From NCBI GenBank assembly GCA_945787155.1, contig CALZHD010000012.1, forward strand, positions 14,402-78,401: a stretch of DNA of 64,000 nt. Reading direction: 5' to 3'. The position numbers and the translations under genes are program-made. This document shows positions 1,783 to 21,795 of this stretch, piece after piece (position 1 is the first letter of the stretch; each line of letters begins with the position of its first letter). The stretch is from an uncultured Gammaproteobacteria bacterium. Its GTDB lineage: Bacteria; Pseudomonadota; Gammaproteobacteria; SZUA-140. A model generated the notes under the pieces. That model was not told where the DNA came from. It searched no databases and was given only the letters and a program-made list of their open reading frames with translations.

Positions 1783-1810
1783 TAAATATACTCTTATGTA
1801 AGATAATATC

Positions 1811-1849: not shown

Positions 1850-1861
1850 TAGAGGAACAGC

Positions 1862-2320: not shown

Positions 2321-2384
2321 AACACACCTCCCTATAATTATTATTCAAAAAATATTATTTTTAATAATCTATTGAAAACTCGAA

Positions 2385-3920: not shown

Positions 3921-3940
3921 AATATCTCCCTTATATACAG

Positions 3941-4813
3941 TTAACAGTTAATATAAATTTCCGATACAACCTCGTTACTGCCGTCGATGACATCACGCCC
4001 CAGACGCGTGACCTCCGCCATTGGCAAGCGCTTGATAATTACCTTGTCACCACCGTTATCTTTTTCTCTCAACTGGAACCGATATTTTGGACTCGCTTTC
4101 AACGACAATTTCTTTGTCGTTCGAAAGGTCATCGCCTCACGCCGATCACCTACGATCTCTCTACCTGAAAACACAAACTCTGCATCACTATCAAGATCAG
4201 ATAAATAGACGTTCTCTCTAGCCACCCGCCCCAGCAGATAGTACTTCCAGAAAACCTCTCGCTCCTTAAATCTGATAACGTAGTGTTTAGGAGCGACGTC
4301 GTTATCGCCATCAACATTCTGTAGGTCTTTTTCCGAAACGCGGATATTCACCACAAAGAGTGGCGGCAAACGCTTTTCCCTATGACTAAGAACATCCGTT
4401 AGCTGGTTTGAGTCCAGTCTTGTTAGGTCGATCATAGATACATATTTGCTATCATGCAACTTGATCCAGCCATCAACGGCGTCTTCTCTACCACCGCTAT
4501 CAAACAAAAGCATGCTGTCATCCGCTTCAAGCGATGCATCTGTTCTGCTTTTAAATCCAGCGTCTTCAGTCGTTACCTTAAACACCAGATTCAGAGGCTC
4601 ATCTTTATCCTCAATGTAAAGTTGCAATGATTCCGTATCTTTTGTGTCAAACATCACTGTAATGCCACCAACAACCGGCTTTACAAGCAACCCGCCATTC
4701 CCAATCACACGCGCCGTGCTTTCAGTCGGAATAAAGTTGAGGCCAGGCGCCACGCCATCTTCATAAAAACCGTGTTCAGTCGTGACAGTAAATAGTGATA
4801 CGTAATTGGCCAT
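3941..4813 (-). CDS. Conserved eCIS protein next to the cap gene, probable cap adaptor (Alg16B-like)
   Basis: 290 aa between the DUF4255 cap and the sheath, starting LFTVTTEHGFY and containing FWKYYL and RLP. Assignment rests on position, size and recalled resemblance only. Confidence 0.5.
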   Translation of the reverse strand: MANYVSLFTVTTEHGFYEDGVAPGLNFIPTESTARVIGNGGLLVKPVVGGITVMFDTKDTESLQLYIEDKDEPLNLVFKVTTEDAGFKSRTDASLEADDSMLLFDSGGREDAVDGWIKLHDSKYVSMIDLTRLDSNQLTDVLSHREKRLPPLFVVNIRVSEKDLQNVDGDNDVAPKHYVIRFKEREVFWKYYLLGRVARENVYLSDLDSDAEFVFSGREIVGDRREAMTFRTTKKLSLKASPKYRFQLREKDNGGDKVIIKRLPMAEVTRLGRDVIDGSNEVVSEIYINC

Positions 4814-4825
4814 CTATAAGTGCTC

Positions 4826-5401
4826 CTAGTTACCCAGTAAAAACTCGGGCTCCTTCATTAGATGGCTTTGCTGTTGGATATCACCCGCATCAAATGTCAC
4901 CATCCTCACTTTATAGAGCACGGACGGCAGATACTTCCCGCCCAACATTCCCCACATACTGCTCAGATCCTGCATACTCATATTTTCGATATCGAGCATA
5001 ATCTTCTCGATGCGCTTATCCAGTGCTGGCGTATTGTGTTGATCCATCATCGGTTGACGTTGAAAAAAACTCACCGCAGTCGAGATAAATTTAAGCCCTT
5101 CGGAGTAGTTACCACCACTAAAATTTCCAGCAACCATCAAATAGAGATTAAGATAAAGTGGCGTAGTAGAGACCACAGAGCGCTCAGCGCCCGGCGCATT
5201 GAGATGCCCCTGCTGCTGCGGTGTGGTGTCTTTTTCGATGTTAACCAGGAACAGTGCGAGCTTGTTATTGACATGCACTGAGACCGTGCTATCCAGCTCC
5301 AATAGATTGGAGATCACGACCATGTCTTCACTCAGTGAAAACGTTCGCCTGATATATTGATTCAGTTCACTAGCGATATGGCCAACAGCAGCATCAATCA
5401 T
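4826..5401 (-). CDS. DUF4255 tail terminator / cap protein (Afp16/Pvc16-like)
   Basis: LALFLVNIEKD, PLYLNLYLMVAGNF, YSEGLKFIS, FFQRQP, SSMWGMLGGKYLPSVLYKVRMV. Confidence 0.88.
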   Translation of the reverse strand: MIDAAVGHIASELNQYIRRTFSLSEDMVVISNLLELDSTVSVHVNNKLALFLVNIEKDTTPQQQGHLNAPGAERSVVSTTPLYLNLYLMVAGNFSGGNYSEGLKFISTAVSFFQRQPMMDQHNTPALDKRIEKIMLDIENMSMQDLSSMWGMLGGKYLPSVLYKVRMVTFDAGDIQQQSHLMKEPEFLLGN

Positions 5402-5692: not shown

Positions 5693-6115
5693 CAATCCTC
5701 CAGCTTCTATCATGAACGCGGCTGATGACGTGATTTCTTCATAAACAATCATTGCATGATTGCTCTGTTATGCTATAAAAGTGGCGTATTTTTTCGCGCA
5801 CCATCAATACATACTGGAGATATCGATAATTAGCGGCGTATAGATTTGGATACCATTGACAAAAATACAAAAAGGTAATGAGTAAACCTGAGCTATGTTA
5901 ATTGTTTAAAGCAGTAATGCCTTTGTTTAGAACTAATCTAAAATCCGCACTGGAATCGATCGCCGGGCCGGCTTTGATGGTGTGGAAATACGCTGCGATC
6001 GATCTCACTAACTCCCCCGTGAAGCCGGTCTTGTAAAGGTGACCTGCATCAGAGCACCTCTATCCGATTTAAAACTGACGATCAGTAGCCTCAACGCCAA
6101 TACCACCACCGACTA

Positions 6116-6586
6116 TCATCCTGCAAACACACTGCCAGACATATATTCTATAAAAAGCACTGCCCTGACAGACTCATCCAGCATTTCGCGATCGATATAC
6201 CCGATGGCGTCTTCATGGCTTGCCACCCAGGCCTTAATCTTAGCCCCATCACCCAACACGGCTGGTGGCCGTCCGCGACCGGAGTAGACAAGGCGCGACC
6301 AGTAAACCTTGATGCGACTCAATGGCTTTTGCACAACCTTGTCGTAGAACGCTTGTTTGATCTCTCTGCCATCCTCGTGATAGACTGGCAGCAGGTGCGT
6401 GCCGTTTTCCAGCACCCTGGTTTTACCAATATAAAGACGCTTAACTTCAGTGGCAGTCACCTGCGTGACAGCACTGTTCGGGTTGACGATGATGGCGATA
6501 TCAGCCTCAGCACTCGATCCAAACACAAAACCCAGAGCAAGGATGGCAAAAAGGATTTTTACTTTTTCAAGCATTGCCATACCCAC
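6116..6586 (-). CDS. Small periplasmic binding protein (phosphate ABC substrate-binding-like)
   Basis: Signal peptide, then IAIIVNPNS, LYIGK, YWSRLVYSGRGRPP, VASHEDAIGYID. This family is commonly encoded behind porins. Confidence 0.75.
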   Translation of the reverse strand: MGMAMLEKVKILFAILALGFVFGSSAEADIAIIVNPNSAVTQVTATEVKRLYIGKTRVLENGTHLLPVYHEDGREIKQAFYDKVVQKPLSRIKVYWSRLVYSGRGRPPAVLGDGAKIKAWVASHEDAIGYIDREMLDESVRAVLFIEYMSGSVFAG

Positions 6587-7687: not shown

Positions 7688-10546
7688 CTATCTTGACCTG
7701 AATTCAATTAACTTAAATTGCTCGGAAGACATGTCAATGGCCTTACTGTCCTCAAGCATGCGTTCAATTTCATCTGCGGGAACAGGCTTGCTAAAGTAGA
7801 ATCCCTGCATCGACTGACAGCCGATACTTTTCAGAAAGCACAATTGTTCTTCGTTCTCGACCCCTTCGGCAATGACATCCAATCCGAGAGAGCGCCCCAT
7901 CTCCACCACAGCACGGGTAATGGCCATATCATCATTATCGTTAGGAATATCCATGACAAATGAGCGGTCAATCTTGAGGGCATCCAGTGCAAATTTCTTC
8001 AGATAACTAAGTGATGAATAGCCCGTACCAAAATCATCCAGCGAAAGAAATACCCCTATCAGCTTGAGACTTTCGAGTGTCTCCACCGCCTGATCTACCT
8101 GGTCCATCAAGATGCCCTCAGTCAGCTCCAGGTCAAGCAATTCAGCTGGCAGGCCTGTCTCAGTCAACACCTTGCTTACCAGCTTGGGCAAGTTGACATG
8201 CTTGAACTGACGCGCGGCGATATTAACCGAAACCTTGAGGGACCACCCTGCCTGGTGCCATAGCACCGCCTGGCGACAGGCCTGGTACAACACCTGCTCA
8301 CCCATCGGCACGATGAGACCGGTCTCTTCGGCAATGGGCAGAAACTTGAAGGGCGCAATCAACCCTTCCTCAGGATGCATCCAGCGAATCAGCGCTTCAA
8401 CCCCAATGATCTCACCCGACTGCAACGAGACCTGGGGTTGATAATACAAAATGAATTCATTGCGCTCCAGTCCCCGCCGAATGGAAGCCTCCATTTGAAG
8501 CGACTCGACTGCTTTTTCGTTCATGTCAGAAGAATAGAATTTGAAGTTGTTACGGCCATCCTCTTTGGCACGGTACATCGCGGTATCGGCATTCTTCAAC
8601 AGTGCATGGGGATCCTTGCCATCATGCGGGTACAGGCTGATGCCGACGCTGGAAGTCGCAACAAACTCCTCTCCAGCAAGATTGAACGGTGTTGACAGAC
8701 CTTCGATGATCTTCTTCGCCACTTGTGCTACATCCGATTTTTTACCCACATCACCGAGCATAATGACAAACTCATCCCCCCCCAGCCGTGCGATGGTATC
8801 CCCATCGCGTACACAATTGCCAAGTCGCTCCGCGACCCCCTTCAACAGCAAATCACCGACATCATGCCCAAGCGTGTCATTAATCATTTTAAAGCGATCA
8901 AGATCAAGAAAAAACACTGCCAGTAGACGGTCATTCCATGGCAATCGAGTCATCGCCTGACTCAGGCGATCGAGAAATAACATGCGATTAGGCAAGCCAG
9001 TAAGTGCATCATGGTTGGCAAGGTGATTCAGGTGCTCTTCAGCCCGTTTTCGTTCAGTAATATCCTTGGCGACAAAGACAGTTCCCCTCTTTTTTCCGTG
9101 GCTATCAAGCATCTCTGCACCTGAAATAACCACCGGAATCTTGCGCTTCTCCCTGGTCAACAAGGTGGTTTCAATATTGCTAATCACACCCTGCTTCGTC
9201 ATATCCGTGACCAATAACGCCTTGAAAAGCGCCTCTTCTTCAGCAATCAGATTATCGATGGACATACCGATTAATTCCTGCTCACTATACCCAAGCTGCC
9301 TGATGGTGGCTTCATTCACCTTGACGATGCTGGCATCTGGACTAACAACCATCAGACTATCCGCCATGGAACCAATAATATCCTCTACCTCGTGACGCGC
9401 ATCAAGCAGGGCCACCTGACTGCCATCCAGCTGATCTAGCATCTGATTAAAAGAATAGGCAAGCTCTCCCAACTCGTCCGATGATTGCCAGTGCACCCGC
9501 TCAGAGAGTTTACCCTGCTCTGAAATTTTACTGGTTACCTGAGTAAGCAGCCTGATTGGCTGGGCAAGATTACGGGCAAATAAATAGGCAACAATAAGCC
9601 CGATCAAGAGCACCACCACCCCAATCAGGATCATGGCCTGAGTCAAGCTATTAACAGGGCCGAAATAGGCATCGGCCGGAATTGCCACGAAGACACTCCA
9701 ACCAAGCTGCGGCACCATGGCGCGGGTAACAACGTTATCGCTACCGAGTAATTGATAACGCCCCAGTACGATGTCAGTAGATGACACCGCCCCCATTAGC
9801 ACCATATCGGTGTCAGTGGCATTGATTGACTGACCGAGCCAGCGGGTATCTGGGGCATGCAAGATATCCCCCTGCTCGTCGACAAGCACTATATAGCCAT
9901 TTCCACTCAACTCAATATCCTGGACGACCTGATCAAAACGACTCAAGGGAACGGTGGTCTCGATAAAACCAAGAAACTGATCAAAATAATCGATATAACG
10001 ATAACTCAGCTTTAAAACAGGCTCTCCAAGAACAGAGGAGTGGGCCGGCGAGGAGATAACAACCTGATTCGGCATGCGCTCGGCCTCGGCATAGTTGCGT
10101 GATTGACCGATATCGTGCAAATCACTGACCAGATTTCCATGGCGAAGTTTGACCTCCTCCTCACCCAGTGCATTCGCGTAAGTAATTTCGGGAAACACAT
10201 CCATGTAATTAGCGAAGTCCTGCGCCAGGACCAGCTCACTGAACGACTGGTAATATTTAGCGACAGCCTCGCTTTTCGCAAGGCGCTCAACCACATTTTT
10301 CAGGCCCACAATATCGCTACTCACCAGACTGGTCACAGCCGCCGCCGTGGCCTGAATTTCTCTCTCCTGCACAATCCTGAAATGGGACTCCATCACCCAA
10401 TAACTGGCGACACTGATGATCGCCGTCACCATCACCACAATCACCGTCTGCATCATCACCAGGCGCAGAGTGATGGAGGATTTGCGGCGAAATGCAGCAG
10501 GCATCTTTTGCGGCGATTCCACAGAAGGGGCTTTCACATCAGCCAT
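7688..10546 (-). CDS. Membrane sensor diguanylate cyclase/phosphodiesterase (Cache-HAMP-PAS-GGDEF-EAL)
   Basis: Two TM segments, HAMP DELGELAYSFNQM, PAS ending KDITERK, RDGD-x5-GGDEF (I-site present), EALIRW, DDFGTGYSSL. Confidence 0.93.
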   Translation of the reverse strand: MADVKAPSVESPQKMPAAFRRKSSITLRLVMMQTVIVVMVTAIISVASYWVMESHFRIVQEREIQATAAAVTSLVSSDIVGLKNVVERLAKSEAVAKYYQSFSELVLAQDFANYMDVFPEITYANALGEEEVKLRHGNLVSDLHDIGQSRNYAEAERMPNQVVISSPAHSSVLGEPVLKLSYRYIDYFDQFLGFIETTVPLSRFDQVVQDIELSGNGYIVLVDEQGDILHAPDTRWLGQSINATDTDMVLMGAVSSTDIVLGRYQLLGSDNVVTRAMVPQLGWSVFVAIPADAYFGPVNSLTQAMILIGVVVLLIGLIVAYLFARNLAQPIRLLTQVTSKISEQGKLSERVHWQSSDELGELAYSFNQMLDQLDGSQVALLDARHEVEDIIGSMADSLMVVSPDASIVKVNEATIRQLGYSEQELIGMSIDNLIAEEEALFKALLVTDMTKQGVISNIETTLLTREKRKIPVVISGAEMLDSHGKKRGTVFVAKDITERKRAEEHLNHLANHDALTGLPNRMLFLDRLSQAMTRLPWNDRLLAVFFLDLDRFKMINDTLGHDVGDLLLKGVAERLGNCVRDGDTIARLGGDEFVIMLGDVGKKSDVAQVAKKIIEGLSTPFNLAGEEFVATSSVGISLYPHDGKDPHALLKNADTAMYRAKEDGRNNFKFYSSDMNEKAVESLQMEASIRRGLERNEFILYYQPQVSLQSGEIIGVEALIRWMHPEEGLIAPFKFLPIAEETGLIVPMGEQVLYQACRQAVLWHQAGWSLKVSVNIAARQFKHVNLPKLVSKVLTETGLPAELLDLELTEGILMDQVDQAVETLESLKLIGVFLSLDDFGTGYSSLSYLKKFALDALKIDRSFVMDIPNDNDDMAITRAVVEMGRSLGLDVIAEGVENEEQLCFLKSIGCQSMQGFYFSKPVPADEIERMLEDSKAIDMSSEQFKLIEFRSR

Positions 10547-11339
10547 CCCGGTCTTCTACCGGTACTACACCGAAGTCCCTGATGATTTTTTTTGCCGGTT
10601 CCGAGCCAACAAAATCGATAAAATCCTTTGCTGGCCCTGTGGCTTCACCCTTGCTGATGAGATAGAACCCAGTAACATAAGGATAGCGCCCTGCAGTAAT
10701 ATTTTCTGCGCTGGCCTGAATACCATCCACCGTCAGCGCTTTCATACCAGTGCGAACCACCTCCGACATAGGCAGATAACCGAAGGTATATTGATGCTGG
10801 TTCAGGGCTGCCACCGCATCAGGAGTCGAAAAAAACCTCTTGGCCTTTGACTCCAGGCCCGCAAACCCCGGCAACTTCTTTTCCAGCACGCTGCGGGAAG
10901 AGTCACCCTTCTCCCGATCCACTGCATACAAGCGGTGGCGCGGGCCATTAAGCTGATTCCAGTTACTAATCCGCCCGGCATAGATATCCACCACCTGGGT
11001 GGACATTATATTGGTCACCCCCTCGGCGCTGGGATGAGCAACGAATACTATAGGTGCGATGGCAAAATGATATTCTACCAATCCCTTCGCTTCTGTTGGT
11101 TTGACCCGGCGAGCCGAGCGCCCCAGCCTCACCCGCCCTGCGGCAACAGCCTTGATCCCCCCCTTTGAACCAATACTGTCGGGAACCTCCACCGTTACAC
11201 CTGAATGCTCTTTTTCAAACGCCGTCGCCAGCAAACGCAACAGATTCTGGTTATCACCAGTGCCGGCAATAACAAGCGTTTCGGCACTCACACCGCTCAT
11301 GCTGAGTGATAACAAACATAATAAAGATAAAATACGCAT
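10539..11339 (-). CDS. PstS-like periplasmic substrate-binding protein, overlapping the sensor gene by 8 nt
   Basis: Signal peptide, IAGTG, SIGSKGGIKAV, DREKGDSSR, GKYP-like GRYPYV. Confidence 0.8.
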   Translation of the reverse strand: MRILSLLCLLSLSMSGVSAETLVIAGTGDNQNLLRLLATAFEKEHSGVTVEVPDSIGSKGGIKAVAAGRVRLGRSARRVKPTEAKGLVEYHFAIAPIVFVAHPSAEGVTNIMSTQVVDIYAGRISNWNQLNGPRHRLYAVDREKGDSSRSVLEKKLPGFAGLESKAKRFFSTPDAVAALNQHQYTFGYLPMSEVVRTGMKALTVDGIQASAENITAGRYPYVTGFYLISKGEATGPAKDFIDFVGSEPAKKIIRDFGVVPVEDRDG

Positions 11340-11622
11340 GACTTCTCCCTGTCAAATTGATCACTTATTAAAAATGTATCGACCGACTAAAGATAAAATA
11401 AATAAATTAAAAGCAGCATAGAGCCAAGACCGTAAAAATATCGGCGGGCAAAAATAGTCGTTTCCCGAGTTGCGCCGTTGGCGCCAGAATTACACTATCG
11501 AGGCGATTCACATTGCCGCCCGGCTTAACGTGCCATCTGTCAGCATCACTTCAAGAGAATCGATTCACAATGTGAGGGCGGATCAACGTTTGAATACTTG
11601 TTGAAAGTCTCAAACCGATGCG

Positions 11623-11961
11623 ATGGCTGTCATAGAGAAGATCGGCTCACCTCAACTGGGTGTCAACTTCGACATCGGTCACTCTCTTTTAAATCATGGA
11701 CCACCTGCTGAGACAGTGCAGATGCTAGCAGGACACATCTGGAATGTGCACGTGGTAGACATCAAGGACAACACTCACTTTCATCTTGTACCAGGCAAAG
11801 GTGATTTGCCATTTAATGAATATCTGGATGCGCTGAAAGCCAGCGGCTACCCAGACTTTTTGACACTGGAACTCTACTCCTATCCTGAAAAGCCCATAGA
11901 AGTGGGAGTACAAGGACTGGCTTATCTTTCTAATGTATTAGACGCCTTACATGAGGATTAG
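11623..11961 (+). pseudogene. C-terminal fragment of a sugar-phosphate isomerase/epimerase (AP endonuclease 2 TIM barrel)
   Basis: LGVNFDIGHS, IWNVHVVDIK, HFHLVPGKGDLPF, LTLELYSY. The N-terminal half is missing and there is an in-frame stop at 11602. Confidence 0.75.
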
Positions 11962-12187: not shown

Positions 12188-12868
12188 ATGGATACATTAC
12201 AAGCTCCAAAGATTGGCGAAATTCTAATCAAGGAAAACCTCACAGAAGCCTCCACAATTCAGAAGGCCCTTGACCAACAAAAATCAAGCGGCGCGATGCT
12301 CGGTGACATCCTGGTCAACGACAATATCATCTCCAAAAAGCAACTAAAAAAAGCGTTACAGATCCAGTTCAGGCACAAGCTTGCCATTGCAGTACTATCA
12401 TTCATCACCACAACGGTTATGCCAGCGTCACTTAAAGCAGGCGAATCAGCATCGCTGCTTATAACGGGTCGAGTAGCCCCAACCAGCTCAGTATCGATTA
12501 GTAGAAGCATCTCTTCAATGGCGGGTATGCCATCGAAAGACGGTATACCGAATCTTATGACCAGCATCACCGAACAGAATAATAATCAGGCAGGCTATTC
12601 CGTTCTTCTCGAAGCAAAAAGCATTGATGACAGCGGCCATCTTGAGCTTGTTAGCAAAGATGACAACAAACCCCTTCCCTATAAAATCACGTATGGCAAT
12701 AAGGATGTCTATTTTACAGAAGGTAAAGCATTGATTTCAGATGTCGCGGCATCTAAAGGTAATAAACAAGTCGAAACTAAAGAATTAAAGATTACACCTG
12801 AAATAATAGGGCATTTAGGTGATGATTACTTATCAGATACTCTAACACTGGTTATCGTTGCAAAATAA
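12188..12868 (+). CDS. Fimbrial subunit with N-terminal MshEN-like domain and internal signal peptide
   Basis: aa 8-60 form two 24-aa xLG-like motifs with a 5-aa linker. Then RHK-LAIAVLSFITTTVMPASLKA, then a domain aligning by eye with the neighbouring pilin (NNQAGYSV/NNKNGYTV, LPYKITY/LPYSMTY, SDTLTLVIVAK/ADTLTFTIAAK). Confidence 0.75.
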   Translation: MDTLQAPKIGEILIKENLTEASTIQKALDQQKSSGAMLGDILVNDNIISKKQLKKALQIQFRHKLAIAVLSFITTTVMPASLKAGESASLLITGRVAPTSSVSISRSISSMAGMPSKDGIPNLMTSITEQNNNQAGYSVLLEAKSIDDSGHLELVSKDDNKPLPYKITYGNKDVYFTEGKALISDVAASKGNKQVETKELKITPEIIGHLGDDYLSDTLTLVIVAK

Positions 12869-12999: not shown

Positions 13000-13020
13000 T
13001 ACACCTACTTTGTAGGTGTA
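13000..13020. promoter_or_regulatory. Perfect 9-bp inverted repeat upstream of the major pilin gene (operator candidate)
   Basis: TACACCTAC-TTT-GTAGGTGTA, just after TTGACT (12991-12996) and 47 nt before ATG 13068. Confidence 0.4.
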
Positions 13021-13067: not shown

Positions 13068-13577
13068 ATGAATAAAAAATCACTATCAAAAGCCTCTCTT
13101 AAACAAGCCCTCGTTGGATGTGGACTAACACTACTCACTGGTTCACTGGTGGCTGCACCAACAGGGAATGTGACGCCTGGCGGCAACATCCCTGGCATCC
13201 TTGACGTGACCTTGACTGATGATGCGGGCATTGCCGCACTGGACCTCACTATTAATGAGCCAAATAGATTGATCACGACGGTCAACGAAAGAACAAACAA
13301 CAAAAATGGTTATACCGTCACCTTGACCTCTTTGAATGGCATAACATCAGGCGTGTTCCTCGGTGCCGTGGATGCAGAGACGTTACCTTATTCGATGACC
13401 TATAACGGCGTTGCAGTCACTCTGGTCGCCGGCTCTGCAACAGTGACCGACGTTAATGCCAAGACCCTTGGCGCGGGTGTTGATAAGCCACTAAGAATTG
13501 CCTATGACGGAACATCGGTATTTCTAGCACCTGACGCTTATGCCGACACGCTCACTTTCACCATCGCCGCTAAATAG
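13068..13577 (+). CDS. Probable major fimbrial subunit of a chaperone-usher pilus
   Basis: Signal peptide, 169 aa, beta-rich, ends DAYADTLTFTIAAK, good RBS, directly upstream of chaperone and usher. Confidence 0.75.
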   Translation: MNKKSLSKASLKQALVGCGLTLLTGSLVAAPTGNVTPGGNIPGILDVTLTDDAGIAALDLTINEPNRLITTVNERTNNKNGYTVTLTSLNGITSGVFLGAVDAETLPYSMTYNGVAVTLVAGSATVTDVNAKTLGAGVDKPLRIAYDGTSVFLAPDAYADTLTFTIAAK

Positions 13578-13657: not shown

Positions 13658-14419
13658 ATGACTCGCTCGATTGCGTTACGATTTTTTTTGGTTGCAATCA
13701 CTTTATGCATCAGCGCACCAACACATGCGTTCAAATTAATACCTATTAAGGCCGATTTTTCTCCTACTGGAAAAAATTCAACCCAGATCTTTAAACTGGA
13801 AAACGACAGCGATGTGTCGATTGCCATACAGGTATCCGCCTTAACCAGACAGGTAGATATCGATGGCAAAGAGAGCTATCAAAATGCTGATGATGATTTC
13901 ATCATTTTTCCACCCCAGATGGTGATCTCTCCTCACAAGACACAAACTGTTCGCGTGCAATGGGCAGGGGATGTTGCGCCGAGCCTTGAACTCCCATATC
14001 GACTTGTTGCAGAGCAGCTTCCAATTGCGCTTAATCGCGAAACAGCCAATGGCGCACATGTAAATATTCTCATGCGTTATCTCGGTGCGATATATATCGT
14101 CCCGGACAATGCAAAACATAGCATTGCTGTCAGTAGCATCCAAAAAGAACGACAGAAGGACGGGAGTAATGCACTGTTGCTAACGCTCGAAAACAGCGGA
14201 AGTTCCCACGCAATCCTGGGGAATCTTTCAATCCAGCTTCCCACAGGACGCGATATCAAAGGGGGCAGTGAAACAATTACATTGACGCCATCGGAACTTG
14301 ATGGAATGAACGGTGAAAATATTCTTGCCGGCCATCAACGACGCTTCTCCGTGCCTTGGCCGAATAAACTTAACGCAGTACCTGAAAAGATCGACCTGGA
14401 ATTTACACCATGGCGCTGA
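13658..14419 (+). CDS. Periplasmic fimbrial chaperone (PapD/CsuC-like)
   Basis: Signal peptide, IFKLEN, FIIFPPQMVISP, QTVRVQW, ELPYRLVAEQLP, LTLENSGSSH. Confidence 0.88.
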   Translation: MTRSIALRFFLVAITLCISAPTHAFKLIPIKADFSPTGKNSTQIFKLENDSDVSIAIQVSALTRQVDIDGKESYQNADDDFIIFPPQMVISPHKTQTVRVQWAGDVAPSLELPYRLVAEQLPIALNRETANGAHVNILMRYLGAIYIVPDNAKHSIAVSSIQKERQKDGSNALLLTLENSGSSHAILGNLSIQLPTGRDIKGGSETITLTPSELDGMNGENILAGHQRRFSVPWPNKLNAVPEKIDLEFTPWR

Positions 14420-14465: not shown

Positions 14466-14579
14466 GGGCATTAGCAGAACATTTCATACACTTTGCCTCA
14501 TAAAATAACAATAAACAATGTTTTGGCAGACTTAAAAAATAGACTAATACAGCGTGAAGACGGGTACATTTTTCAAAAA

Positions 14580-17108
14580 ATGGGTTTTGAACAGAAAAGA
14601 ATCGAAAATCTGTTGCAATGGTTATGGATTGTAGTCCGTCAAATCACGTGCCTTGTTGTGCTTGCTAGCTCATTTAGTAGTCAGGTGTTCGCAGTAAACG
14701 ACGCACAACTGTTTGAAGAGGTTTTCGGCAAACAGCCGATCCAGAAAGATCAGCGCATATCCGTTCCGCTGATCGTTGAATCATCCCAACTGGGAAATAT
14801 CGATATCCTGATCAGCGGGCAATATGAAGTGCTTAAAATTGATACTCTCGGATTTTCTTCGAAGATCGGTCATCTGCTTCAGGAAGCGGTACTACAGAAG
14901 ATTATCGATTTATCAAACCAGTCTGATGATATCAATACGATCCCTCTACACGATTTTGGCATCGACCTATATTTCGATAATCAGGAACTCGAACTCCATG
15001 TAACCATTAGACCAGAAGCACGTAAAACCACGACAAATGCACTCTACAAACGCACTCCACCCTACCCGATATCGCAGGCCCTGGCAGTGAGTCCAGTCAG
15101 TGCTTACCTCAATATGCGCGTCGGTGTCGACTATTACCACAAATCCAATGGCCTATTCGATGGCCGTCAGCCGGCGATTGCTTCATTTGAACAGGCACTG
15201 CGTGTAAAAGACTGGGTGCTGGAAGCCGATACCCGCTACCTCGAAAAAAACAGTACTCAGTGGCAACGAGGTAATGTCAGGGTGGTTCATGATGATACTG
15301 AACGCATGTGGCGCTATGCACTCGGTGACCTCTCCTATCCTACTTCCGGTATACAGCAGTTCCAGCCAATGGCCGGCTTCACGCTCGCGCGGAATTTTTC
15401 ACTGCAGCCCTACCGCGTCACTACACCATCAGGCAATGCTGATCTATTTTTGAACAATGAATCGACAGTGGAGGTGCTGGTAAATAATAACGTTATCCGC
15501 GTACTCAGACTGCCAGCTGGATCGCATAACATCCAGGACTTTCCTTCCACCAGTGGCATTAACGATATACAACTAAGAATAACCGATAGCGTTGGTCGCA
15601 CCAAAACGGTTGAAGTCCCCTTTCTATTTGACAGCACCTTACTGACGCCCCGACTCAGCGAATATAGCTACAGCATAGGCGTGCCCTCAACAGTAGTGAA
15701 TGGCAAATATGTCTACGACGAAGACCTTCCAGGCGTTTCGCTATTTCATCGTAAAGGGATCACCCCCGAACTCACGCTGGGTGTTGGCCTGCAAGCTAAC
15801 GAGGATCAGAAAATGTTCAGCTTCGAGAGCATCTGGGCCACTCAGAACGGTACGTTTAGAGCCGACATCGGTAGCAGTCATATCCGCTCACTGGGAAGAG
15901 ATCATCGCACGCGCATGCAATACCGATACTTCGATGCAAGCCATCGCAACCAGTCGAATCATCAATGGACTTTTCAGCTTGATTATACGGGAAGGTATTA
16001 CGCAACCCTGGGTAACCTCACCCCGGACAATATTATCACCTATGATATGACCGGCAACTATAGTCGCCGTATTGGAAAAAATTCAGCAGGTGGCGTTGGC
16101 ACTAATTACCAGCTAATGCGAGGAGGACTCCCCAATGATCATAGCCTGGGACTATTCGTCCAACACTCGTTTAGTCGTGAACTGGGAAGCCGGATTAGCG
16201 TTGAGAAACAACGCAGGCGTGGTGACTACGATTACCGTGTTTTCTTAAGCCTAACCTGGACACCGCAACGAACATATCGCACCATCACCGCCACGCACGA
16301 CACACTGAACGACACTTCAAGAGTGAGCTGGGAGCAGATATCCCCCAACAAAGTTGGCGGAACAAACCTTTCACTGGGCGCTGTTAAAACGCCCGATGAG
16401 AGCACCCTGTCAGGAAGAGTCAGCCACGTCGGTTACCTCGCCGAAACAAGCCTGTCAAATAACATCGTCAATACCGACAACCCATCATCTGAAGGACATC
16501 AATTAAGCAGCCTCACGTTTGGGACCGCTCTGGTTTATGCACAAGGTGCTACATCACTGACACGGCCGGTAACAGACAGCTTTGCGATAGTCGTACCACA
16601 TGCCAACCTGGATAAAATGCAAGTGGGTGTTAACCCGTTAGGCGACCATTATGCCGCGCGCACCAATCTATTCGGCGCCGCAGTGGTACCCGATCTCACT
16701 TCCTATCTTGCACATAGCGTTAACATTGATGTGCCTAATCTTCCACTCGGTTATGATCTTGGTGATGAATCATTTGTGGTGTTACCCGCCTACAAGAGCG
16801 GCACCATTATTCATATCGGTACAGATGCCACTGTACTGCTTGGAGGCGTACTTAAACGCTCGGATGGCTCACCCATCGGCTTGCAGGCGGGTGAGCTTGT
16901 GGCGCTCGACAACCCAGAGTGGGAGCCAAAAATACTGTTTACCAATCGTAGTGGCATCTTCAGGGTCGAAGGACTGAGTCCCGGCCTCTACGAGCTGCGA
17001 ATGTTTAACGACCAGCGCCATAGCGTTAAATTCGAGGTCCCTGAGAAGAGTGCGGGCTATTACGATATAGGCGCCCTGATTTTACCCATCCAGGTTTCAC
17101 AAAAATAA
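14580..17108 (+). CDS. Outer-membrane fimbrial usher (CsuD-like)
   Basis: WQRGNVRVVHDD, ALGDL, MAGFTLARNFSLQPY, LPAGSHNIQDFP, PGVSLFHRKGIT, DSFAIV, FTNRSGIF. Start chosen at ATG 14580. Confidence 0.9.
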   Translation: MGFEQKRIENLLQWLWIVVRQITCLVVLASSFSSQVFAVNDAQLFEEVFGKQPIQKDQRISVPLIVESSQLGNIDILISGQYEVLKIDTLGFSSKIGHLLQEAVLQKIIDLSNQSDDINTIPLHDFGIDLYFDNQELELHVTIRPEARKTTTNALYKRTPPYPISQALAVSPVSAYLNMRVGVDYYHKSNGLFDGRQPAIASFEQALRVKDWVLEADTRYLEKNSTQWQRGNVRVVHDDTERMWRYALGDLSYPTSGIQQFQPMAGFTLARNFSLQPYRVTTPSGNADLFLNNESTVEVLVNNNVIRVLRLPAGSHNIQDFPSTSGINDIQLRITDSVGRTKTVEVPFLFDSTLLTPRLSEYSYSIGVPSTVVNGKYVYDEDLPGVSLFHRKGITPELTLGVGLQANEDQKMFSFESIWATQNGTFRADIGSSHIRSLGRDHRTRMQYRYFDASHRNQSNHQWTFQLDYTGRYYATLGNLTPDNIITYDMTGNYSRRIGKNSAGGVGTNYQLMRGGLPNDHSLGLFVQHSFSRELGSRISVEKQRRRGDYDYRVFLSLTWTPQRTYRTITATHDTLNDTSRVSWEQISPNKVGGTNLSLGAVKTPDESTLSGRVSHVGYLAETSLSNNIVNTDNPSSEGHQLSSLTFGTALVYAQGATSLTRPVTDSFAIVVPHANLDKMQVGVNPLGDHYAARTNLFGAAVVPDLTSYLAHSVNIDVPNLPLGYDLGDESFVVLPAYKSGTIIHIGTDATVLLGGVLKRSDGSPIGLQAGELVALDNPEWEPKILFTNRSGIFRVEGLSPGLYELRMFNDQRHSVKFEVPEKSAGYYDIGALILPIQVSQK

Positions 17109-17109
17109 C

Positions 17110-18075
17110 ATGGCTAGCATCAACCAAACCAAAGAGAGCCAGCTGCTGAAGATGATATCCATCATCACGCTCGTAGTATTCTCGCTGCTTGCATTCTCGA
17201 CTGAGGCCTGCGGACTCAGACTGAATAATATAGCTCCAGTGACATTCGGTGGCAGCACAGGCATCGGGTATGAATCCTTTGATACCACCCTCTATCCTCA
17301 GTCAGCCCCCCTGACAATAAGCAACCAGAGAAAAAATGCATGCAACTATTTTATTACTTTCAGCGAGGGGTCATCAGGAACCTATAACCGAACATTGCTC
17401 AATGGAGCCAATGTACTGAACTACCAACTCTATGACCAGGCAAGTCAGGCAAACATTTTAAAAGACCTTCCTGCTGCCACTGCCAGTGAGGTACTCAGTG
17501 GGAACTTCACCGGCAGGGGCGCTCAGCAACTAAGTTTCTTCCTCGTTATTCCTGCCGAGCAGGTTGTCAGACCGGGAACCTACACAGATACCATTACCAT
17601 GACTGCATACGAAGGTGATCCCACCAGCAGCATACAACACCGCACCAGAACTCTGACAATCTCGGCGACGGTACTGGAACAGATAGACCTCTCTTTGGTG
17701 AACCCTGGCGGCAGCTTTAATCCAGCCCTCACAGCGCGCCTGATCGATTTTGGCATATTACAGACGGGAAAATTCTCTGACTTCGACCTCAGAGTGCGCA
17801 GCAACATCGGTTATAGCATCTCGCTCAGCTCACAAAACATCGGCAATATGGCCCATATCGATCCAACCGACAGCAGTCTGATTCCCTTTTCATTTACTGC
17901 TAATAGTGTGAATGTAGACCTTAGCGGGCCAGCAGCCACCGTCATAAACACCCCTCTACCGACATCGCCACTCGGTACACCCTACCCAATGCGCGTCACC
18001 GTCGGCACTATCGGCAACGCGTCTGCTGGCGATTATCAGGATAACATTACCATTACCATCATTGCCGGGCCGTGA
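17110..18075 (+). CDS. Tip adhesin-like subunit with two spore coat U (SCPU) domains (CsuE-like)
   Basis: LNYQLYD, PGTYTDTIT and terminal AGDYQDNITITI motifs; last gene of the operon. Confidence 0.8.
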   Translation: MASINQTKESQLLKMISIITLVVFSLLAFSTEACGLRLNNIAPVTFGGSTGIGYESFDTTLYPQSAPLTISNQRKNACNYFITFSEGSSGTYNRTLLNGANVLNYQLYDQASQANILKDLPAATASEVLSGNFTGRGAQQLSFFLVIPAEQVVRPGTYTDTITMTAYEGDPTSSIQHRTRTLTISATVLEQIDLSLVNPGGSFNPALTARLIDFGILQTGKFSDFDLRVRSNIGYSISLSSQNIGNMAHIDPTDSSLIPFSFTANSVNVDLSGPAATVINTPLPTSPLGTPYPMRVTVGTIGNASAGDYQDNITITIIAGP

Positions 18076-18254: not shown

Positions 18255-20503
18255 CTATTTGTTACTCCCCTCGCTTGTGATGTAATCACTCAAACGCTCC
18301 AACCAACCATCCAGTCCCTGTTGATCAAGAAAAAAATCAAAACCTCCAAGACTACGCTGCAGGTTCATTAGATCAATAATGAAATCAAAAACCGCATTGG
18401 TCGCCGCTTCTTCTGCGACCAACGCGGCATTCTGTGCATCGAGCAGGTCGAGAATGGAAACCACACCGCGAGAGTAGGCATCTGTCGCCAGATCCAGATT
18501 TTTTTTCGCTGCGCTCGCGGCATCCCTGGAAAGCTGTATGGAGGGATAAGAGGCACCGATGTCGTGCAGAGCTGCTCTAATGCGTTGTTCAATACGCGCT
18601 TTAATCGCGTCGCGCTGGGTCAGGAACTGATTTAACGTGAGCCGGCTACCAGCGACACGCGCACTTCGAGCACCTCCCTCGAACAATGGCAGTGAGACAT
18701 TTACGCCTACCGACCAATCGGTATCGTCTTCTGCCGATAATCCGGCCAGGCGCTGTTCATCCATGATATGAGTCACTTCACTTTGTAACGTAACCGTCGG
18801 TGACCAGTAGGCGCGCTGGTTAACTTTGAGTTCCCGCTGGGTAGCGGACAGTAACGCTTCCATGGAGGCGAGTTCTGGCGAAGCTGACAGACCTTCAATC
18901 ACCATGAAATCACCCATAAGCGCAAAGGTGCGATCGCTGCTGACATAATCAAATAGTTCTTTACGACTGACGACCAGGCGGGGATCTTCAAGCGTAGCGG
19001 GCGCGGTGATGAACGGCTCTTTGAGTGGTCGGTGCAATAATCTATTGAGGGCATCCCGGGCCTGCCGAAGTTGCGCCTGCGCATTGAGGAGCGCCTGGCG
19101 TGAGGTGGCCAGCTGACTCTCCCAGCGATAGACCTCGGATGGATTGGCCACACCGATCTGCTGCCGATCCCTCGCCAGCTCCAGGTTGGCACGGCTGAGA
19201 TTCATGTTTTCGCGGCGGATATGAATAAAGGTTTGCGCCTTGAGCAGATTAAGGTAGGTGATGGTGGCCTCCTGGATAATGTCCAACTCCAGTTGACGCT
19301 TAAGTGCTGTTCGATTGTTTTGCAGATAGCGCTGAATCTCCACATTCGCACGTACCGCATCAGAATAAATCAGCTGTCTCAATGTGATTGCCGCCGAGGT
19401 GGATTGCTCTGCCGTTGCGCCGCTCATCACAGCACTACTGTCATCATTCAGGCGATTATGACCGAGACGGGCATCGAGTTGTGGCCTCAATCCAGCACGG
19501 GCCTGCGCCACATTACTCTCTGAATCAACACCGCTTCGCTGAGGATGTCGAAGCGGGGTGAAATACCGATCGCCCGAGCGGTAGCCATGTTGATGGTCAA
19601 ACGCCGCTTGCTCTCCATCGTGACAGGCTGATGCTCGGCCAGCTCGCCATGCAACACAGCATGTATGTTCAACGCGTTACGACGCGCCAGCCGCCGCCAG
19701 TTAGTGGCGGGGGCCTCCGCCATCAACAGTCCCTGCTCTACCAGGTGAGCATCCAGCAGACTGTAGCTGGGCAGCTTCTTCTCAATCAGGGTAGCGATCA
19801 CCTTACCCATAGCTGTGGGACTCAGGAGTCCCTGGCCGGTGACGACAACGCAGTCGACACCTGACGGCAGTCGAGCCGCCAGGTTTTCATTGCGCGTTCT
19901 CTGTTGAATAAACTGTAGTTCCGCACCTGCCGCGGCAGTCACCTCGCGGGCGCGACGGATCAATCCCGGTTGCGCCTCATAGTCAGCTTCGCTAAGAAAC
20001 ACTGCGATGTTTTTACAGTTAGCGACACTGTTCATCACCTGTAGATCGCGCACGAAATCGGCGCCACTGCTCAGATAATTGAGATGCCTGACGCCACTAC
20101 TATTGCCCTTTCTGGGCAGCCCCTGAAAATCGGCATCCATGATAAACGGCGCAAAAGTCGGTTTACGCAACGGCTGGTCAAGGGCCGCGATAACACTGGC
20201 AACATAGCCGAGCGCCAATACCATATCGACTTCGGGGTCCTGCTGCAGCTGTTGGTGGGCAGCGGCGATGCGCTTCGCTGACCAGCCACCATCGAGCTGT
20301 TTCGCCGCAGGAAAATGAACATCGAAATCGGCCTCTGTTAGCACCAGTAGTTCATTCTTGAACAACGCCATAGACCAGCCACTGTGCTCCATCGGACCAT
20401 CCGTGATAATACCGATGCTGATGACCTTCGCTGCCTGTGCGGCAGGAACCAGCCATAACAACACGATCAATAGACAGAATAGATTAAGATTAGCGCGTTT
20501 CAT
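18255..20503 (-). pseudogene. ABC substrate-binding domain-TolC fusion, broken by an internal deletion/frameshift
   Basis: ORF 19487-20503 has a signal peptide and an ABC substrate-binding fold ending INMATARAIGISP. ORF 18255-19511 is a TolC barrel lacking signal peptide and first helix (starts ESNVAQARAGLRPQL; ends YSRGVVSILDLLDAQ...). Frames overlap near 19510-19525. Confidence 0.7.
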
Positions 20504-20523
20504 CTCCTCTTCACCTCATGAGT

Positions 20524-21660
20524 TCACACTTGCGTTAATGTTACGGTCTTGCGAAAGCGCAGCAGTGCAGCAGAAAAAAACAGTGCGCCAATGGCTACCG
20601 TCGCCAGCAAATTGGGCCAGATCACCGCCACACTGGCATCACGAAACAGCACCGCCTGGGCCATGCTGACAAAATGGGTGGAAGGCACCAGCTGCATAAT
20701 CATCTGCAGTGGCACGGGCATGCTCTCCAACGGGGTGTGCGCACCGGAGAGCAGTAGCATCATCACAAACACAATCATCGCCAGCAGACCGAACTGGGGC
20801 ATGGAGCGAGCCAGCGTCGCCAGATAGATGCCCAGGGAAGTCACCGAAAAGAGATAGACGACTGTAACGAATATATAAAGCGGAATAGAACCGATAATAG
20901 CAGCGCCCAATGCACCCTGTATCACAAGGTAGAGTGACAGCGTCGCAGCCAGAATGACCACCAATCCATTGGCCCACACCTTGGCCAGTATAATCTCAAC
21001 CGGTCGTAGCGGCATCACCAGCAGATGTTCGATAGTGCCATGTTCACGTTCACGAATGAGGGCAGCACCGGTGAGCAGAATCGCCATCATGGTGATGTTA
21101 TTGGTGAGCGCCATCGCACCCTGAAACCCGGTCGCCTCCAGGTTGGGGTTGAACCTGGCGCGGGTCACAATATCGACCACAGCCAACGGTTCAACACCTC
21201 GGTCGCTATTTAGAAATGCACTCAACTCCTCGGAAATAATCTGCTGGATATAAGCAGCACCCGTGCCCGCCAGCCCCATGGCCGTGGCATCGACATTGAG
21301 CTGGATCACGGTGGGCCGCCCCGCCATCAGATCCGCCTGGAATCCAGGAGGGATATCTATGACAAAGGTGTAACGCGCCGCCTCCATACTGGCATTGATT
21401 TCATCGACCGTGATGGCCACCGGTGGCTGGAACTGGGGTTGCAGCAGAGCATCGCCGATGCGCCGCGACAATTGAGAGCGGTCTTCATCAACAATCGCCA
21501 CCGCGGCATTCACCACGCCAGTGGTCGCGTTCTGCGCCTCTTCCATCACGGAAAAGCTGAACATATAGACGATCAGGAACAGCATCACCGGATCATAACG
21601 CAGGCTGAACAGCTCTTTTATGCCCAGTTGAAAGATATTGCCGAGACATCGCTTCATCAT
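20524..21660 (-). CDS. yhhJ: ABC-2 family permease (YhhJ-like)
   Basis: LGIKELFSL, AIVDEDRSQLS, RFNPNL, REREHGTIEHLLVMP, SGAHTPLESMP. Confidence 0.85.
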   Translation of the reverse strand: MMKRCLGNIFQLGIKELFSLRYDPVMLFLIVYMFSFSVMEEAQNATTGVVNAAVAIVDEDRSQLSRRIGDALLQPQFQPPVAITVDEINASMEAARYTFVIDIPPGFQADLMAGRPTVIQLNVDATAMGLAGTGAAYIQQIISEELSAFLNSDRGVEPLAVVDIVTRARFNPNLEATGFQGAMALTNNITMMAILLTGAALIREREHGTIEHLLVMPLRPVEIILAKVWANGLVVILAATLSLYLVIQGALGAAIIGSIPLYIFVTVVYLFSVTSLGIYLATLARSMPQFGLLAMIVFVMMLLLSGAHTPLESMPVPLQMIMQLVPSTHFVSMAQAVLFRDASVAVIWPNLLATVAIGALFFSAALLRFRKTVTLTQV

Positions 21661-21795
21661 CAACTCGCATGGCTTAGCAAAATGGCGTGAGCAGACAAAT
21701 GCGTGTGGCAACCTGTCAATGATGAATCCTGCATTGTATCTTCTCTCCCTGCTTTAACTTTTAATCTTCAATAGACGACTGGTGAAAAATGCACT

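Follow-up and report, generated by a model that had tools for sequence, protein, structure and literature searches.

The window, i.e., the whole stretch of 64,000 nucleotides from an uncultured Gammaproteobacteria bacterium that was analysed here, encodes within a chaperone-usher operon a protein with a three-part layout: an MshEN_N module (aa 8-60), a signal-peptide-like segment (61-84) and a pilin part (85-226). That is, a domain of the c-di-GMP-receptor type stands in front of the putative export signal of a pilus subunit. We propose, at about even odds, that the product is a pre-pilin of an archaic (SCPU/Csu-type) system and that c-di-GMP in the cytoplasm gates the step at which this pre-pilin is exported, processed or released. 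The arrangement of a 24+5+24 MshEN motif ahead of a signal peptide and a pilin had been pointed out in a preliminary description of the window, and the open reading frame translates exactly as quoted there. Table 1 lists the features of the gene and of its surroundings.

Table 1. Features of the fused gene and its neighbourhood in the window.
Feature	Position	Strand	Basis
dCache-HAMP-PAS-GGDEF-EAL protein (c-di-GMP turnover)	7688..10546	-	Pfam; 1.6 kb upstream, divergent
Fused gene, 226 aa + stop	12188..12868	+	ORF, ATG start
MshEN_N 24+5+24 c-di-GMP-binding-type motif, aa 8-60, predicted cytoplasmic four-helix module	12209..12367	+	NF053729, PDB matches, AF2
Signal-peptide-like segment, aa 61-84	12368..12439	+	Column alignment with non-fused paralogues
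Predicted N-terminal donor strand, aa 85-99, GESASLLITGRVAPT	12440..12484	+	Alternating hydrophobics with Gly
Pilin beta-sandwich, aa 100-226, ending in DTLTLVIVAK F-strand motif	12485..12865	+	Foldseek, neighbour identity
Terminator-like hairpin and T-rich tract between fused gene and next pilin gene	13000..13020	+	Pattern scan
Ordinary pilin, 169 aa, short signal peptide, strong AGAGGAAG Shine-Dalgarno	13068..13577	+	
Periplasmic PapD-like chaperone	13658..14419	+	PF00345 PapD_N, E 7.9e-8
Outer-membrane usher	14493..17108	+	PF00577 Usher, E 1.8e-21
Two-domain tip subunit with SCPU domain	17110..18075	+	PF05229 SCPU, E 9.1e-15

Judged by its sequence, the N-terminal module truly belongs to the MshEN_N family, and its 24+5+24 motif is far beyond chance. 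The first 24-residue half (aa 8-31, KIGEILIKENLTEASTIQKALDQQ) is joined to the second (aa 37-60, MLGDILVNDNIISKKQLKKALQIQ) by the five-residue linker KSSGA (aa 32-36). Against the NCBIfam model NF053729 ('c-di-GMP_motif, MshE-related'; 53 positions, curated cut-off 38 bits), aa 8-60 score 49.1 bits (E 3.6e-13) over positions 1-53 of 53. An HMM check of this kind had been proposed for both MshEN and T2SSE_N, and only its first half came out positive: in a Pfam scan of the fused protein, PF05157 (T2SSE_N) has no match. The same scan returned nothing significant at all, with DUF4388 as a sub-threshold hit only, such that the domain became visible only with NCBIfam, and the family may be without a name because Pfam alone gives no significant match. 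Given the roughly 60 residues before the hydrophobic segment, there is no room for a T2SSE_N1 subdomain. When searched against the PDB, the single fused protein finds the N-terminal domains of PilF, PilB and MshE (E 3.5e-8 to 1.4e-4), and the family profile finds V. cholerae MshE (5htl) with E 1.4e-15 and PilF with E 5.5e-27. The AF2 model places helices at residues 9-15, 21-34, 38-44 and 50-76 (pLDDT about 93-96), i.e., it predicts a four-helix module.

We also compared the module with the relaxed motif that applies to both halves, [RKPN]hGxxhhxx[GAS]hhxxxxhxxxhxx[QNKRYWST] (Wang et al. 2016, PMC5013675). The window copy agrees at 18/22 checked positions and does not match the pattern as a whole. 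The deviating positions are N17 and N46, which replace the two loop glycines, M37, which replaces the second Arg, and T19, which falls on a hydrophobic motif position; the first Arg is replaced by K8. The substitutions claimed earlier (Arg to K/M, loop Gly to N) are thus all present. Kept are the guanine-contacting positions I9/G10, I24, L28, Q31, L38/G39, L53, L57 and Q60. Eight other family members satisfy the relaxed motif at 22/22 positions, and the nearest relatives (P0002-4, P0006, P0007) likewise have no turn glycines. Close relatives of the window copy carry Asn or other residues in place of these glycines and share the Met in place of the second Arg. At the level of sequence, the family fits the relaxed MshEN motif and the window copy is a divergent member; c-di-GMP binding is putative throughout the family. 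Replacing Gly by Leu/Ile at MshEN turns sharply lowers c-di-GMP binding, and degenerate, non-binding MshEN domains exist, e.g., in XpsE and PA4526 (both Wang et al. 2016, PMC5013675).

Such degenerate domains, the four deviating positions of the window copy and the missing turn glycines of its nearest relatives speak for a first alternative, namely that MshEN in the window clade lost c-di-GMP binding, such that only the canonical members would be receptors. We regard this loss as possible, if on the improbable side, and are similarly doubtful about the other roles it would leave to the domain, i.e., protein-protein contact, oligomerisation or an extended, ESPR-like n-region by which export is slowed or targeted. 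Two observations argue against such a loss: the residues at the guanine-contacting positions are retained, and the HMM score lies above the curated cut-off. So does selection, since the codons of aa 1-60 show a dN/dS of 0.12 in comparison with two orthologues, i.e., purifying selection, as well as the location of a GGDEF-EAL gene 1.6 kb upstream. Furthermore, Asn is the residue best suited to stand in for Gly in turns. It is also found at the first turn position of a solved PilB N-terminal domain ('LVRNNII', 5zfr).

Directly after MshEN, the protein continues with an n-region FRHK, a 14-residue h-region LAIAVLSFITTTVM and a c-region PASLKA|G with a predicted signal peptidase I site after A84, in agreement with the stretch of RHK, hydrophobic core and SLKA|G reported before. 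Residues 61-84 align column for column with non-fused paralogues, namely with their short classic signal peptides and AxA sites. Among 26 aligned fused members, position -1 is Ala in 24 and position -3 small or aliphatic in 25, and a helix breaker located around -6 to -4 is aligned with that of the short-signal pilins. By these sequence rules, signal peptidase likely cleaves the fused precursor, whose peptidase site and donor-strand motif both fall in the same columns as in ordinary pilins with a short signal. The hydrophobic segment is the most conserved part of the fused gene (96% aa identity vs 68% elsewhere, dN/dS 0.03), while the neighbouring pilin shows the usual opposite trend, i.e., its signal peptide is less conserved than its mature part. 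This suggests a special role of the segment. In the AF2 model, helix 4 of MshEN continues straight into it as one helix. An extension of 60 residues ahead of a Sec signal is atypical.

The C-terminal part shares 29% identity (E 1e-12) with the product of the ORF at 13068..13577, which bears out its earlier description as a paralogue of the neighbouring pilin. For the predicted model, nearly all of the top 50 Foldseek matches in the PDB are chaperone-usher pilus subunits or adhesins (CfaB, Caf1, SafA, PsaA, DraE, CupE, FimA), with best E-values from 2.8e-5 upward and a probability of about 1.0, i.e., an Ig-like pilin fold is predicted. The donor strand of the window protein, SLLITGRVAP, follows the family consensus LxLxGxVxP that is common to non-fused pilins; G94 and V96 are almost invariant across the family alignment, and residues 77-98 are disordered in the AF2 monomer model (pLDDT <50). 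The C-terminal DTLT.. F-strand motif is retained as well. With regard to PF05229 (SCPU), the Pfam scan gave a match for the tip subunit only; neither the fused protein nor the pilin next to it was matched.

The family was revealed by an exhaustive phmmer search, while a word-indexed protein search gave only 5 close relatives. About 20 divergent clusters (50% level) show the full MshEN_N-segment-pilin architecture. A close-clade alignment search found only three loci, which come from two MAGs of uncultured Gammaproteobacteria, and in addition an MshEN match that is unrelated. The preliminary description had proposed to look for the architecture near other usher operons, and it does recur there in distant lineages, among them several uncultured bacteria: the fusion lies beside SCPU-type chaperone/usher genes in 8 of the 10 distinct contexts examined. 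PapD_N, Usher and SCPU genes adjoin it in the window and at loci L001-3, L004/5, L008, L009 and L011-16. Two members are located away from chaperone-usher genes, i.e., P0165, which adjoins ExoD/AsmA, and P0046, which adjoins a large sensor protein. L004, L011 and L012 carry the fusion without any other small pilin ORF, and we infer that in such loci the fibre is built from the fused protein. A terminator or anchor subunit (PapH/FimI-like) was also considered and rejected, as no positive evidence was found for it and these same loci contradict it.

A related family combines two to three MshEN copies, (MshEN)x2-3, with a hydrophobic segment and a beta domain, and is also found inside such operons. 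At L021 and L022, an (MshEN)x3 relative is flanked by the pilin genes on one side and, on the other, by the chaperone gene, which it directly precedes. Using hhalign, the (MshEN)x2-3 family aligns to the fused-pilin family with 99.5% probability over 140 columns, and it is only via this alignment that the (MshEN)x3 periplasmic domain is termed pilin-related here. A Foldseek search with the (MshEN)x3 family model gave no significant match; the weak ones include FlhE and several pilins.

Within the window, the ordinary pilin is probably the major subunit of the operon and the fused subunit probably a low-abundance, regulated one beside it. The mature part of the ordinary pilin is nearly identical in L001, with a less conserved signal peptide. 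Its earlier designation as 'major pilin' is plausible for the window, given its strong Shine-Dalgarno and its higher conservation, and does not extend to the loci that have no small pilin other than the fusion. The SCPU tip domain marks the system as archaic/Csu-like. The hairpin behind the fused gene has an energy of -11.7 kcal/mol (z = -4.4) in the window and is strong only there; its counterparts at two orthologous loci are weak and do not reach significance. Counts from the promoter/terminator pattern scan were not above shuffled expectation. The GGDEF-EAL protein could act as a local c-di-GMP source. Its gene sits in an insert of about 5.3 kb that L001, an orthologous locus, lacks, such that the link to the fused gene is suggestive only. 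The borders of the insert showed neither a target-site duplication nor terminal inverted repeats.

The operon context and the properties of the hydrophobic segment also bear on a second alternative, i.e., an uncleaved bitopic inner-membrane regulator in which a signal anchor tethers the pilin-like domain and the latter binds the chaperone or another subunit. We consider such an anchored protein unlikely, and are equally sceptical about its presumed action, in which c-di-GMP would alter that interaction in the inside-out manner of LapD/Alg44 and the protein would titrate or release the chaperone instead of serving as a fibre subunit. The segment is far better conserved than a generic signal peptide and forms a continuous helix with MshEN helix 4 in the AF2 model, as would suit an anchor. 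In addition, the window operon has an ordinary, better-conserved pilin with a strong ribosome binding site, so that the fused protein need not be structural, and the (MshEN)x3 relative of L021 and L022 lies right before the chaperone gene. On the other hand, the h-region has just 14 hydrophobic residues followed by a helix breaker, and the Ala at -1 (24/26) and the small or aliphatic residue at -3 (25/26) stand in the cleavage columns of the short-signal pilins, where an anchor has no need for them. The donor-strand and F-strand motifs are retained, and in L004, L011 and L012 a fibre would require the release of the fused protein, the only small pilin of these loci.

An artefact, for which the weak Shine-Dalgarno ahead of the ATG at 12188 and the metagenomic origin of the assemblies could be cited, is effectively refuted and next to impossible: a wrong start codon (MshEN not made) is ruled out by the dN/dS of about 0.12 over aa 1-60, by an MshEN motif that is preserved at the protein level even among family members only 25-40% identical, and by the in-frame Met codons downstream, of which there are only two (M37 and M78) that would leave half a motif or no signal peptide, while a chimeric join is ruled out by finding the same fused gene with the same operon in at least 4 independent assemblies from several samples, including orthologues of 70-85% identity. 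None of the three outcomes that had been named beforehand as refutations and can be judged from sequence, i.e., a downstream start, a chimeric join or a fusion unique to this assembly, therefore holds, the last also in view of the approximately 20 clusters.

The gated pre-pilin we propose could work as follows. Its Sec signal peptide carries a 60-residue, predictedly cytoplasmic MshEN_N ahead of the positively charged n-region, and Sec would insert the protein N-in/C-out, such that MshEN remains in the cytoplasm and may bind c-di-GMP there. Occupancy of MshEN would alter the directly attached hydrophobic segment in its conformation, its position or its oligomeric state, and this change would control the translocation and/or the signal-peptidase release of the pilin domain. 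Once freed, the pilin would be delivered by the chaperone to the usher, i.e., c-di-GMP would license pilus assembly post-translationally. By analogy with other adhesins, high c-di-GMP would be expected to promote release. Only tentatively do we put forward the most specific form of this idea, in which a c-di-GMP receptor in a cleavable signal peptide decides on pilin translocation or release and the cleaved MshEN-signal stub could report export flux. If true, it would provide a direct, fast post-translational switch for chaperone-usher pili, and the principle would reach the (MshEN)x2-3 relatives in other archaic chaperone-usher operons.

Chaperone-usher pili rank among the major adhesins and biofilm factors. 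In textbook models, they have no cytoplasmic component, and both the energy and the order of assembly come from periplasmic folding. Known c-di-GMP control of these pili is transcriptional, e.g., via MrkH. The conserved family, in which the precursor of a subunit contains a c-di-GMP-receptor-type domain, suggests that the second messenger could act on fibre assembly directly and post-translationally. To our knowledge, there is no earlier case of a ligand-binding domain that precedes a Sec signal peptide and serves regulation, and this would be the first if our reading is true. No description of the MshEN-pilin architecture was found in the literature on MshEN, signal peptides, spore coat protein U and c-di-GMP/chaperone-usher systems or among the architectures tabulated in the founding MshEN paper, which agrees with its having been called undescribed at the outset. 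The MshEN receptor family would gain a new output class, and dozens of unnamed 'hypothetical proteins' in metagenomes a likely role. Precursor vs mature pilin at high and low c-di-GMP offers a simple, testable system.

Among known systems, the ATPases MshE, PilB and PilF share the 24+5+24 motif and the predicted four-helix module as well as the link between c-di-GMP and surface fibres (Wang et al. 2016, PMC5013675). There, however, the domain sits together with T2SSE_N1 on a cytoplasmic motor ATPase, whereas the fused pilin has MshEN_N only, placed on an exported substrate of a pathway without ATPase or known cytoplasmic component. Fusions of MshEN_N to envelope enzymes, i.e., NfrB (GT2-MshEN), EpsG and the Acaryochloris MshEN_N-Peptidase_M23 'NlpD' (Wang et al. 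2016, PMC5013675, Suppl. Table 4), resemble the fused pilin in that MshEN_N appears as a portable c-di-GMP input on proteins at or beyond the inner membrane. None of the architectures listed by Wang et al. (2016) is a pilin, a chaperone-usher protein or an MshEN_N before a cleavable signal peptide.

In terms of operon content, i.e., pilin(s), PapD-like chaperone, usher and SCPU two-domain tip, the Csu (Acinetobacter) and CupE (Pseudomonas) systems match, and the likeness extends to the fold of the pilin, its N-terminal donor strand and the Y.DTLT motif at its C-terminus. Unlike the fused pilin, their subunits have ordinary signal peptides of 20-30 residues. The known regulation of archaic chaperone-usher pili is transcriptional or by phase variation, and a literature search for other modes of their regulation gave nothing beyond these two. 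The ESPR of autotransporters and TPS proteins likewise extends a Sec signal at the N-terminus and presumably modulates translocation, but it is short (about 25 aa), unstructured and ligand-free, and has no sequence relation to the fused protein according to Pfam. MrkH, a PilZ-type protein, also places a chaperone-usher fimbria (Klebsiella type 3) under c-di-GMP control; it acts on mrkA transcription, whereas here the receptor-type domain lies within the subunit polypeptide. Finally, in Alg44 (PilZ-TM-periplasmic domain) and LapD, one membrane segment connects a cytoplasmic c-di-GMP receptor to a periplasmic domain, through which the export or assembly of a surface product is controlled. Both are stable membrane proteins with unrelated receptor folds (PilZ and degenerate EAL, respectively), while the periplasmic part of the fused protein is itself homologous to fibre subunits, and its peptidase site is conserved.

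The fused gene is one open reading frame whose translation agrees exactly with that of the preliminary description, and the 24+5+24 repeat spacing reported there was found in it (see the table). The remainder of the protein aligns with the product of the next ORF, i.e., the ordinary pilin, at 29% identity (E 1e-12), which bears out the proposed paralogy. By membership, the C-terminal part belongs to the chaperone-usher pilins of SCPU-type systems, though it stays below the Pfam SCPU threshold. The genes that follow the fused gene in the window correspond to an archaic, Csu/CupE-like chaperone-usher system.

Features of the window and of related loci (L-numbers, loci from other assemblies)
Feature	Position	Strand	Remarks
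Contractile-injection-system genes	451-5401	-	just upstream; sheath, gp19-type tube proteins, CIS_tube, Pvc16_N
AP_endonuc_2 pieces	5895-6125 and 11464-11943		split by ~5.3 kb insert (comparison with L001)
~5.3 kb insert			three unknown ORFs, dCache-HAMP-PAS-GGDEF-EAL gene (7688-10546), PBP-like gene (10539-11339)
Fused ORF	12188..12868	+	ATG start, 226 aa
Repeats, fused protein	aa 8-31 and aa 37-60		two 24-residue repeats, 5-residue linker KSSGA between
Signal-peptide-like stretch, fused protein			FRHK, 14-residue hydrophobic core LAIAVLSFITTTVM, PASLKA|G
Alternating stretch, fused protein	aa 85-99		GESASLLITGRVAPT; hydrophobic residues alternating about one Gly
Hairpin and T-rich tract	13000-13020		between fused and ordinary pilin genes; 9-bp stem, -11.7 kcal/mol, z -4.4
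Ordinary pilin	13068..13577		169 aa
PapD_N chaperone	13658-14419		downstream of fused gene; Pfam
Usher	14493-17108		downstream of fused gene; Pfam
Two-domain SCPU subunit	17110-18075		downstream of fused gene; Pfam
Efflux-type cluster	18255-25626	-	directly downstream of pilus operon; outer-membrane OEP protein, unknown 338-aa protein, two ABC-2 permease/ATPase genes, HlyD-family adaptor
(MshEN)x3 proteins P0171, P0172	L021:8001-9137 and L022:5368-6474		inside SCPU-type operons
Ushers with C-terminal OmpA domain	L013:1318-4728 and L015:1275-4619		1114-1136 aa

A Pfam scan of the fused protein yielded no significant match, PF05157 included, and the protein has no room for a T2SSE_N1 part. The NCBIfam model NF053729 ('c-di-GMP_motif, MshE-related', 53 positions) spans aa 8-60 end to end with 49.1 bits (E 3.6e-13), i.e., above its curated cut-off of 38 bits, as expected from the earlier MshEN call. 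Searching solved structures with the single protein retrieved the N-terminal domains of Thermus PilF, PilB and V. cholerae MshE (E 3.5e-8 to 1.4e-4); with the family profile, E fell to 5.5e-27 for PilF and to 1.4e-15 for 5htl, the MshE domain with bound c-di-GMP. AlphaFold2 folds aa 9-76 into four helices (pLDDT about 94-96), the fourth of which (50-76) runs into the hydrophobic segment without a break. The NF053729 hit, the structure matches and the four-helix model thus identify the module as an MshEN_N subdomain.

Starting from what the data establish, i.e., the architecture, its translation and conservation, the linkage to chaperone-usher genes and the kept peptidase site, donor strand and pilin fold, we infer a general model of c-di-GMP-gated pre-pilin export or cleavage. 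The pre-protein would be inserted N-in via Sec with MshEN on the cytoplasmic side; MshEN would bind c-di-GMP, and its occupancy would change the attached signal segment. Translocation and/or signal-peptidase cleavage, and hence handover to chaperone and usher, would thereby become c-di-GMP-dependent. We give this model about an even chance. The gating proposed in the preliminary description appears plausible and in part supported, and the underlying observation of an MshEN-type module before a chaperone-usher pilin is confirmed by NF053729, conservation and independent assemblies.

A possible, if rather doubtful, reading is that the MshEN of the window clade no longer binds c-di-GMP; it overlaps with the general model as well as with the tethered regulator considered below. 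The window protein meets 18/22 positions of the relaxed motif of Wang et al. 2016 (PMC5013675) and retains the guanine-contacting positions I9, G10, I24, L28, Q31, L38, G39, L53, L57 and Q60. The first Arg is replaced by K8, which the motif permits, the second by M37, and T19 fails a hydrophobic position. The two turn glycines, which are required for the helix turns and whose exchange for Leu or Ile cuts binding strongly (Wang et al. 2016, PMC5013675), are N17 and N46. Asn is a plausible substitute there and also occupies the first turn position in a solved PilB N-domain ('LVRNNII'). A fully canonical motif (22/22) was found in eight of the family members checked, e.g., RIGEVLVSLGLISRSQLQLALAEQ-RDTGE-RLGEALVRLGFIRRKDLNLVLSEQ. 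By membership the window copy carries a divergent MshEN_N domain, and its c-di-GMP binding is putative.

With regard to the signal segment, non-fused paralogues have textbook signal peptides (e.g., MKKLIALALLAIAPVAFA|GTTATLTISGTVAP), and in the alignment of fused and non-fused proteins the hydrophobic cores, helix breaker, AxA site and LxLxGxV motif fall in identical columns. Of the 26 fused members, 24 have Ala and one has Gly at position -1, and 25 carry a small or aliphatic residue at -3. With 13-15 residues, the core has the usual length of a cleaved signal and is short for a stable membrane anchor. The fused protein shares the C-terminal F-strand motif Y.DTLTLVIVAK with ordinary pilins, and aa 77-98 are disordered in the AlphaFold2 monomer model, as a donor strand would be. 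The aligned AxA site, short core, F-strand motif and disordered donor strand argue that the pilin domain would be released by a cut after A84 and be able to polymerise. An uncleaved, tethered regulator (LapD/Alg44-like) we hold to be unlikely. The high conservation of aa 61-84, the most conserved part of the fused gene (96% identity vs 68% elsewhere; dN/dS 0.03), is at odds with a plain signal peptide; in the neighbouring ordinary pilin, the mature part is better conserved than the signal peptide. These residues therefore probably have a sequence-specific role. They prolong MshEN helix 4, which places its final binding residues (L53, L57, Q60) at a distance of one to three helical turns from the membrane. 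For gated export, this junction would, judging from the model, be a natural place to couple ligand binding with signal-peptide position or packing.

Artefacts are ruled out: a mis-called start by the dN/dS of 0.12 in codons 1-60, similar to 0.12-0.22 in the pilin part (orthologues in loci L017, 85% aa identity, and L001, 70%), and by an MshEN motif kept at protein level in relatives with just 25-40% identity; a chimeric join by the identical order of fused gene and pilin-chaperone-usher-SCPU genes in several independent assemblies. The relatives from the genome scan are the uncultured Gammaproteobacteria MAGs FO_M_Gamma_031 and 032.1.

An exhaustive phmmer search (1.84 billion representatives) gave 484 matches at E ≤ 0.001, most confined to the MshEN part; full-length matches (roughly 220-245 aa) form about 20 clusters at 50% identity. 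Their source records say 'hypothetical protein' or leave them nameless. The architecture recurs beside other usher genes, where the preliminary description suggested looking: the fused gene comes first in a pilin-chaperone-usher-SCPU operon in the window, L001-3 and L009, follows usher and SCPU in L008, and is divergent from chaperone-usher-SCPU in L004/5, L011/12 and L013-16. The L013 and L015 ushers have an unusual architecture with a peptidoglycan-binding OmpA domain. Two members have no chaperone-usher genes within reach: P0165 (L006/L007) has ExoD/AsmA beside it, and P0046 (contig JGI 3300078620) shares 4 bases with the start of a giant, 2211-aa CHASE-GAF-PAS multi-domain sensor gene, whose dedicated partner it may be. 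The 182-aa pilin paralogue P0029, also from the phmmer search, has an N-terminus (..RKILVERGLAS..) resembling a half-MshEN remnant before its signal peptide, and represents either a fusion that has decayed or a wrongly called start.

Islands L004, L011 and L012 contain no further small pilin ORF, such that, if any fibre is made there, its shaft has to be built from the fused protein. In the window, the fused gene has a weak Shine-Dalgarno site and is followed by the hairpin, while the ordinary pilin has a strong AGAGGAAG site and shows almost no variation between relatives; the fused subunit is thus probably a minor, regulated one here. The hairpin, whose equivalents in L017 and L001 are weak, may be an attenuator setting the ratio of fused to ordinary subunit. 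In the signal peptide of the ordinary pilin (13068-13160), the most evident AxA site, VAA|P, would leave Pro at +1, a residue that signal peptidase I does not tolerate there; a cut after LTG is therefore more likely, judging from the sequence. Its LVGC resembles a lipobox but is too near the charged n-region.

Many of the MshEN matches belong to a second, unnamed family of 350-400-aa proteins in which two or three MshEN motifs precede a hydrophobic segment and a beta domain of ~140 aa (at least 36 clusters among the sequences retrieved). Operon context was looked up for two members, P0171 and P0172, and the gene order is SCPU pilin, SCPU pilin, (MshEN)x3 protein, chaperone, usher, SCPU. Both families align in hhalign with 99.5% probability over 140 columns, covering the MshEN module, hydrophobic segment, donor-strand-like stretch and first beta strands. 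The AlphaFold2 model of the (MshEN)x3 family is confident (pLDDT 87) and shows three modules of four helices each, a long helix and, behind a disordered linker, a beta sandwich; Foldseek found no significant match to it. Given these operons and the relation of the families, MshEN membrane proteins recur with archaic chaperone-usher operons, and their association is not a one-lineage peculiarity.

The AP_endonuc_2 gene (xylose-isomerase-like TIM barrel) upstream is intact in L001 (284 aa). The insert that splits it in the window showed neither a target-site duplication nor terminal repeats. The inserted GGDEF-EAL gene encodes a c-di-GMP turnover enzyme and lies 1.6 kb upstream of the fused gene; a functional tie is only suggestive because the gene is missing from L001. 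The contractile-injection-system genes were identified via 83% nucleotide identity to L001 and the Pfam families recorded there.

The founding MshEN paper (PMC5013675) lists T2SSE ATPases, GT2 glycosyltransferases (NfrB), REC, HD-GYP, CheX, AAA_31 (EpsG), CheA and Peptidase_M23 architectures; its table contains no pilin or chaperone-usher protein. A full-text literature search also found no account of an MshEN-pilin fusion, in line with the earlier statement that no description was known. The closest parallels in mode of action are Alg44 and LapD, in which one membrane segment links a cytoplasmic c-di-GMP receptor to an assembly step in the periplasm, and the ESPR extensions found on autotransporter signal peptides, although neither shares sequence kinship with the fused protein. 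The domain architecture of the latter is new, and its mode of regulation probably is too, both made of known parts.
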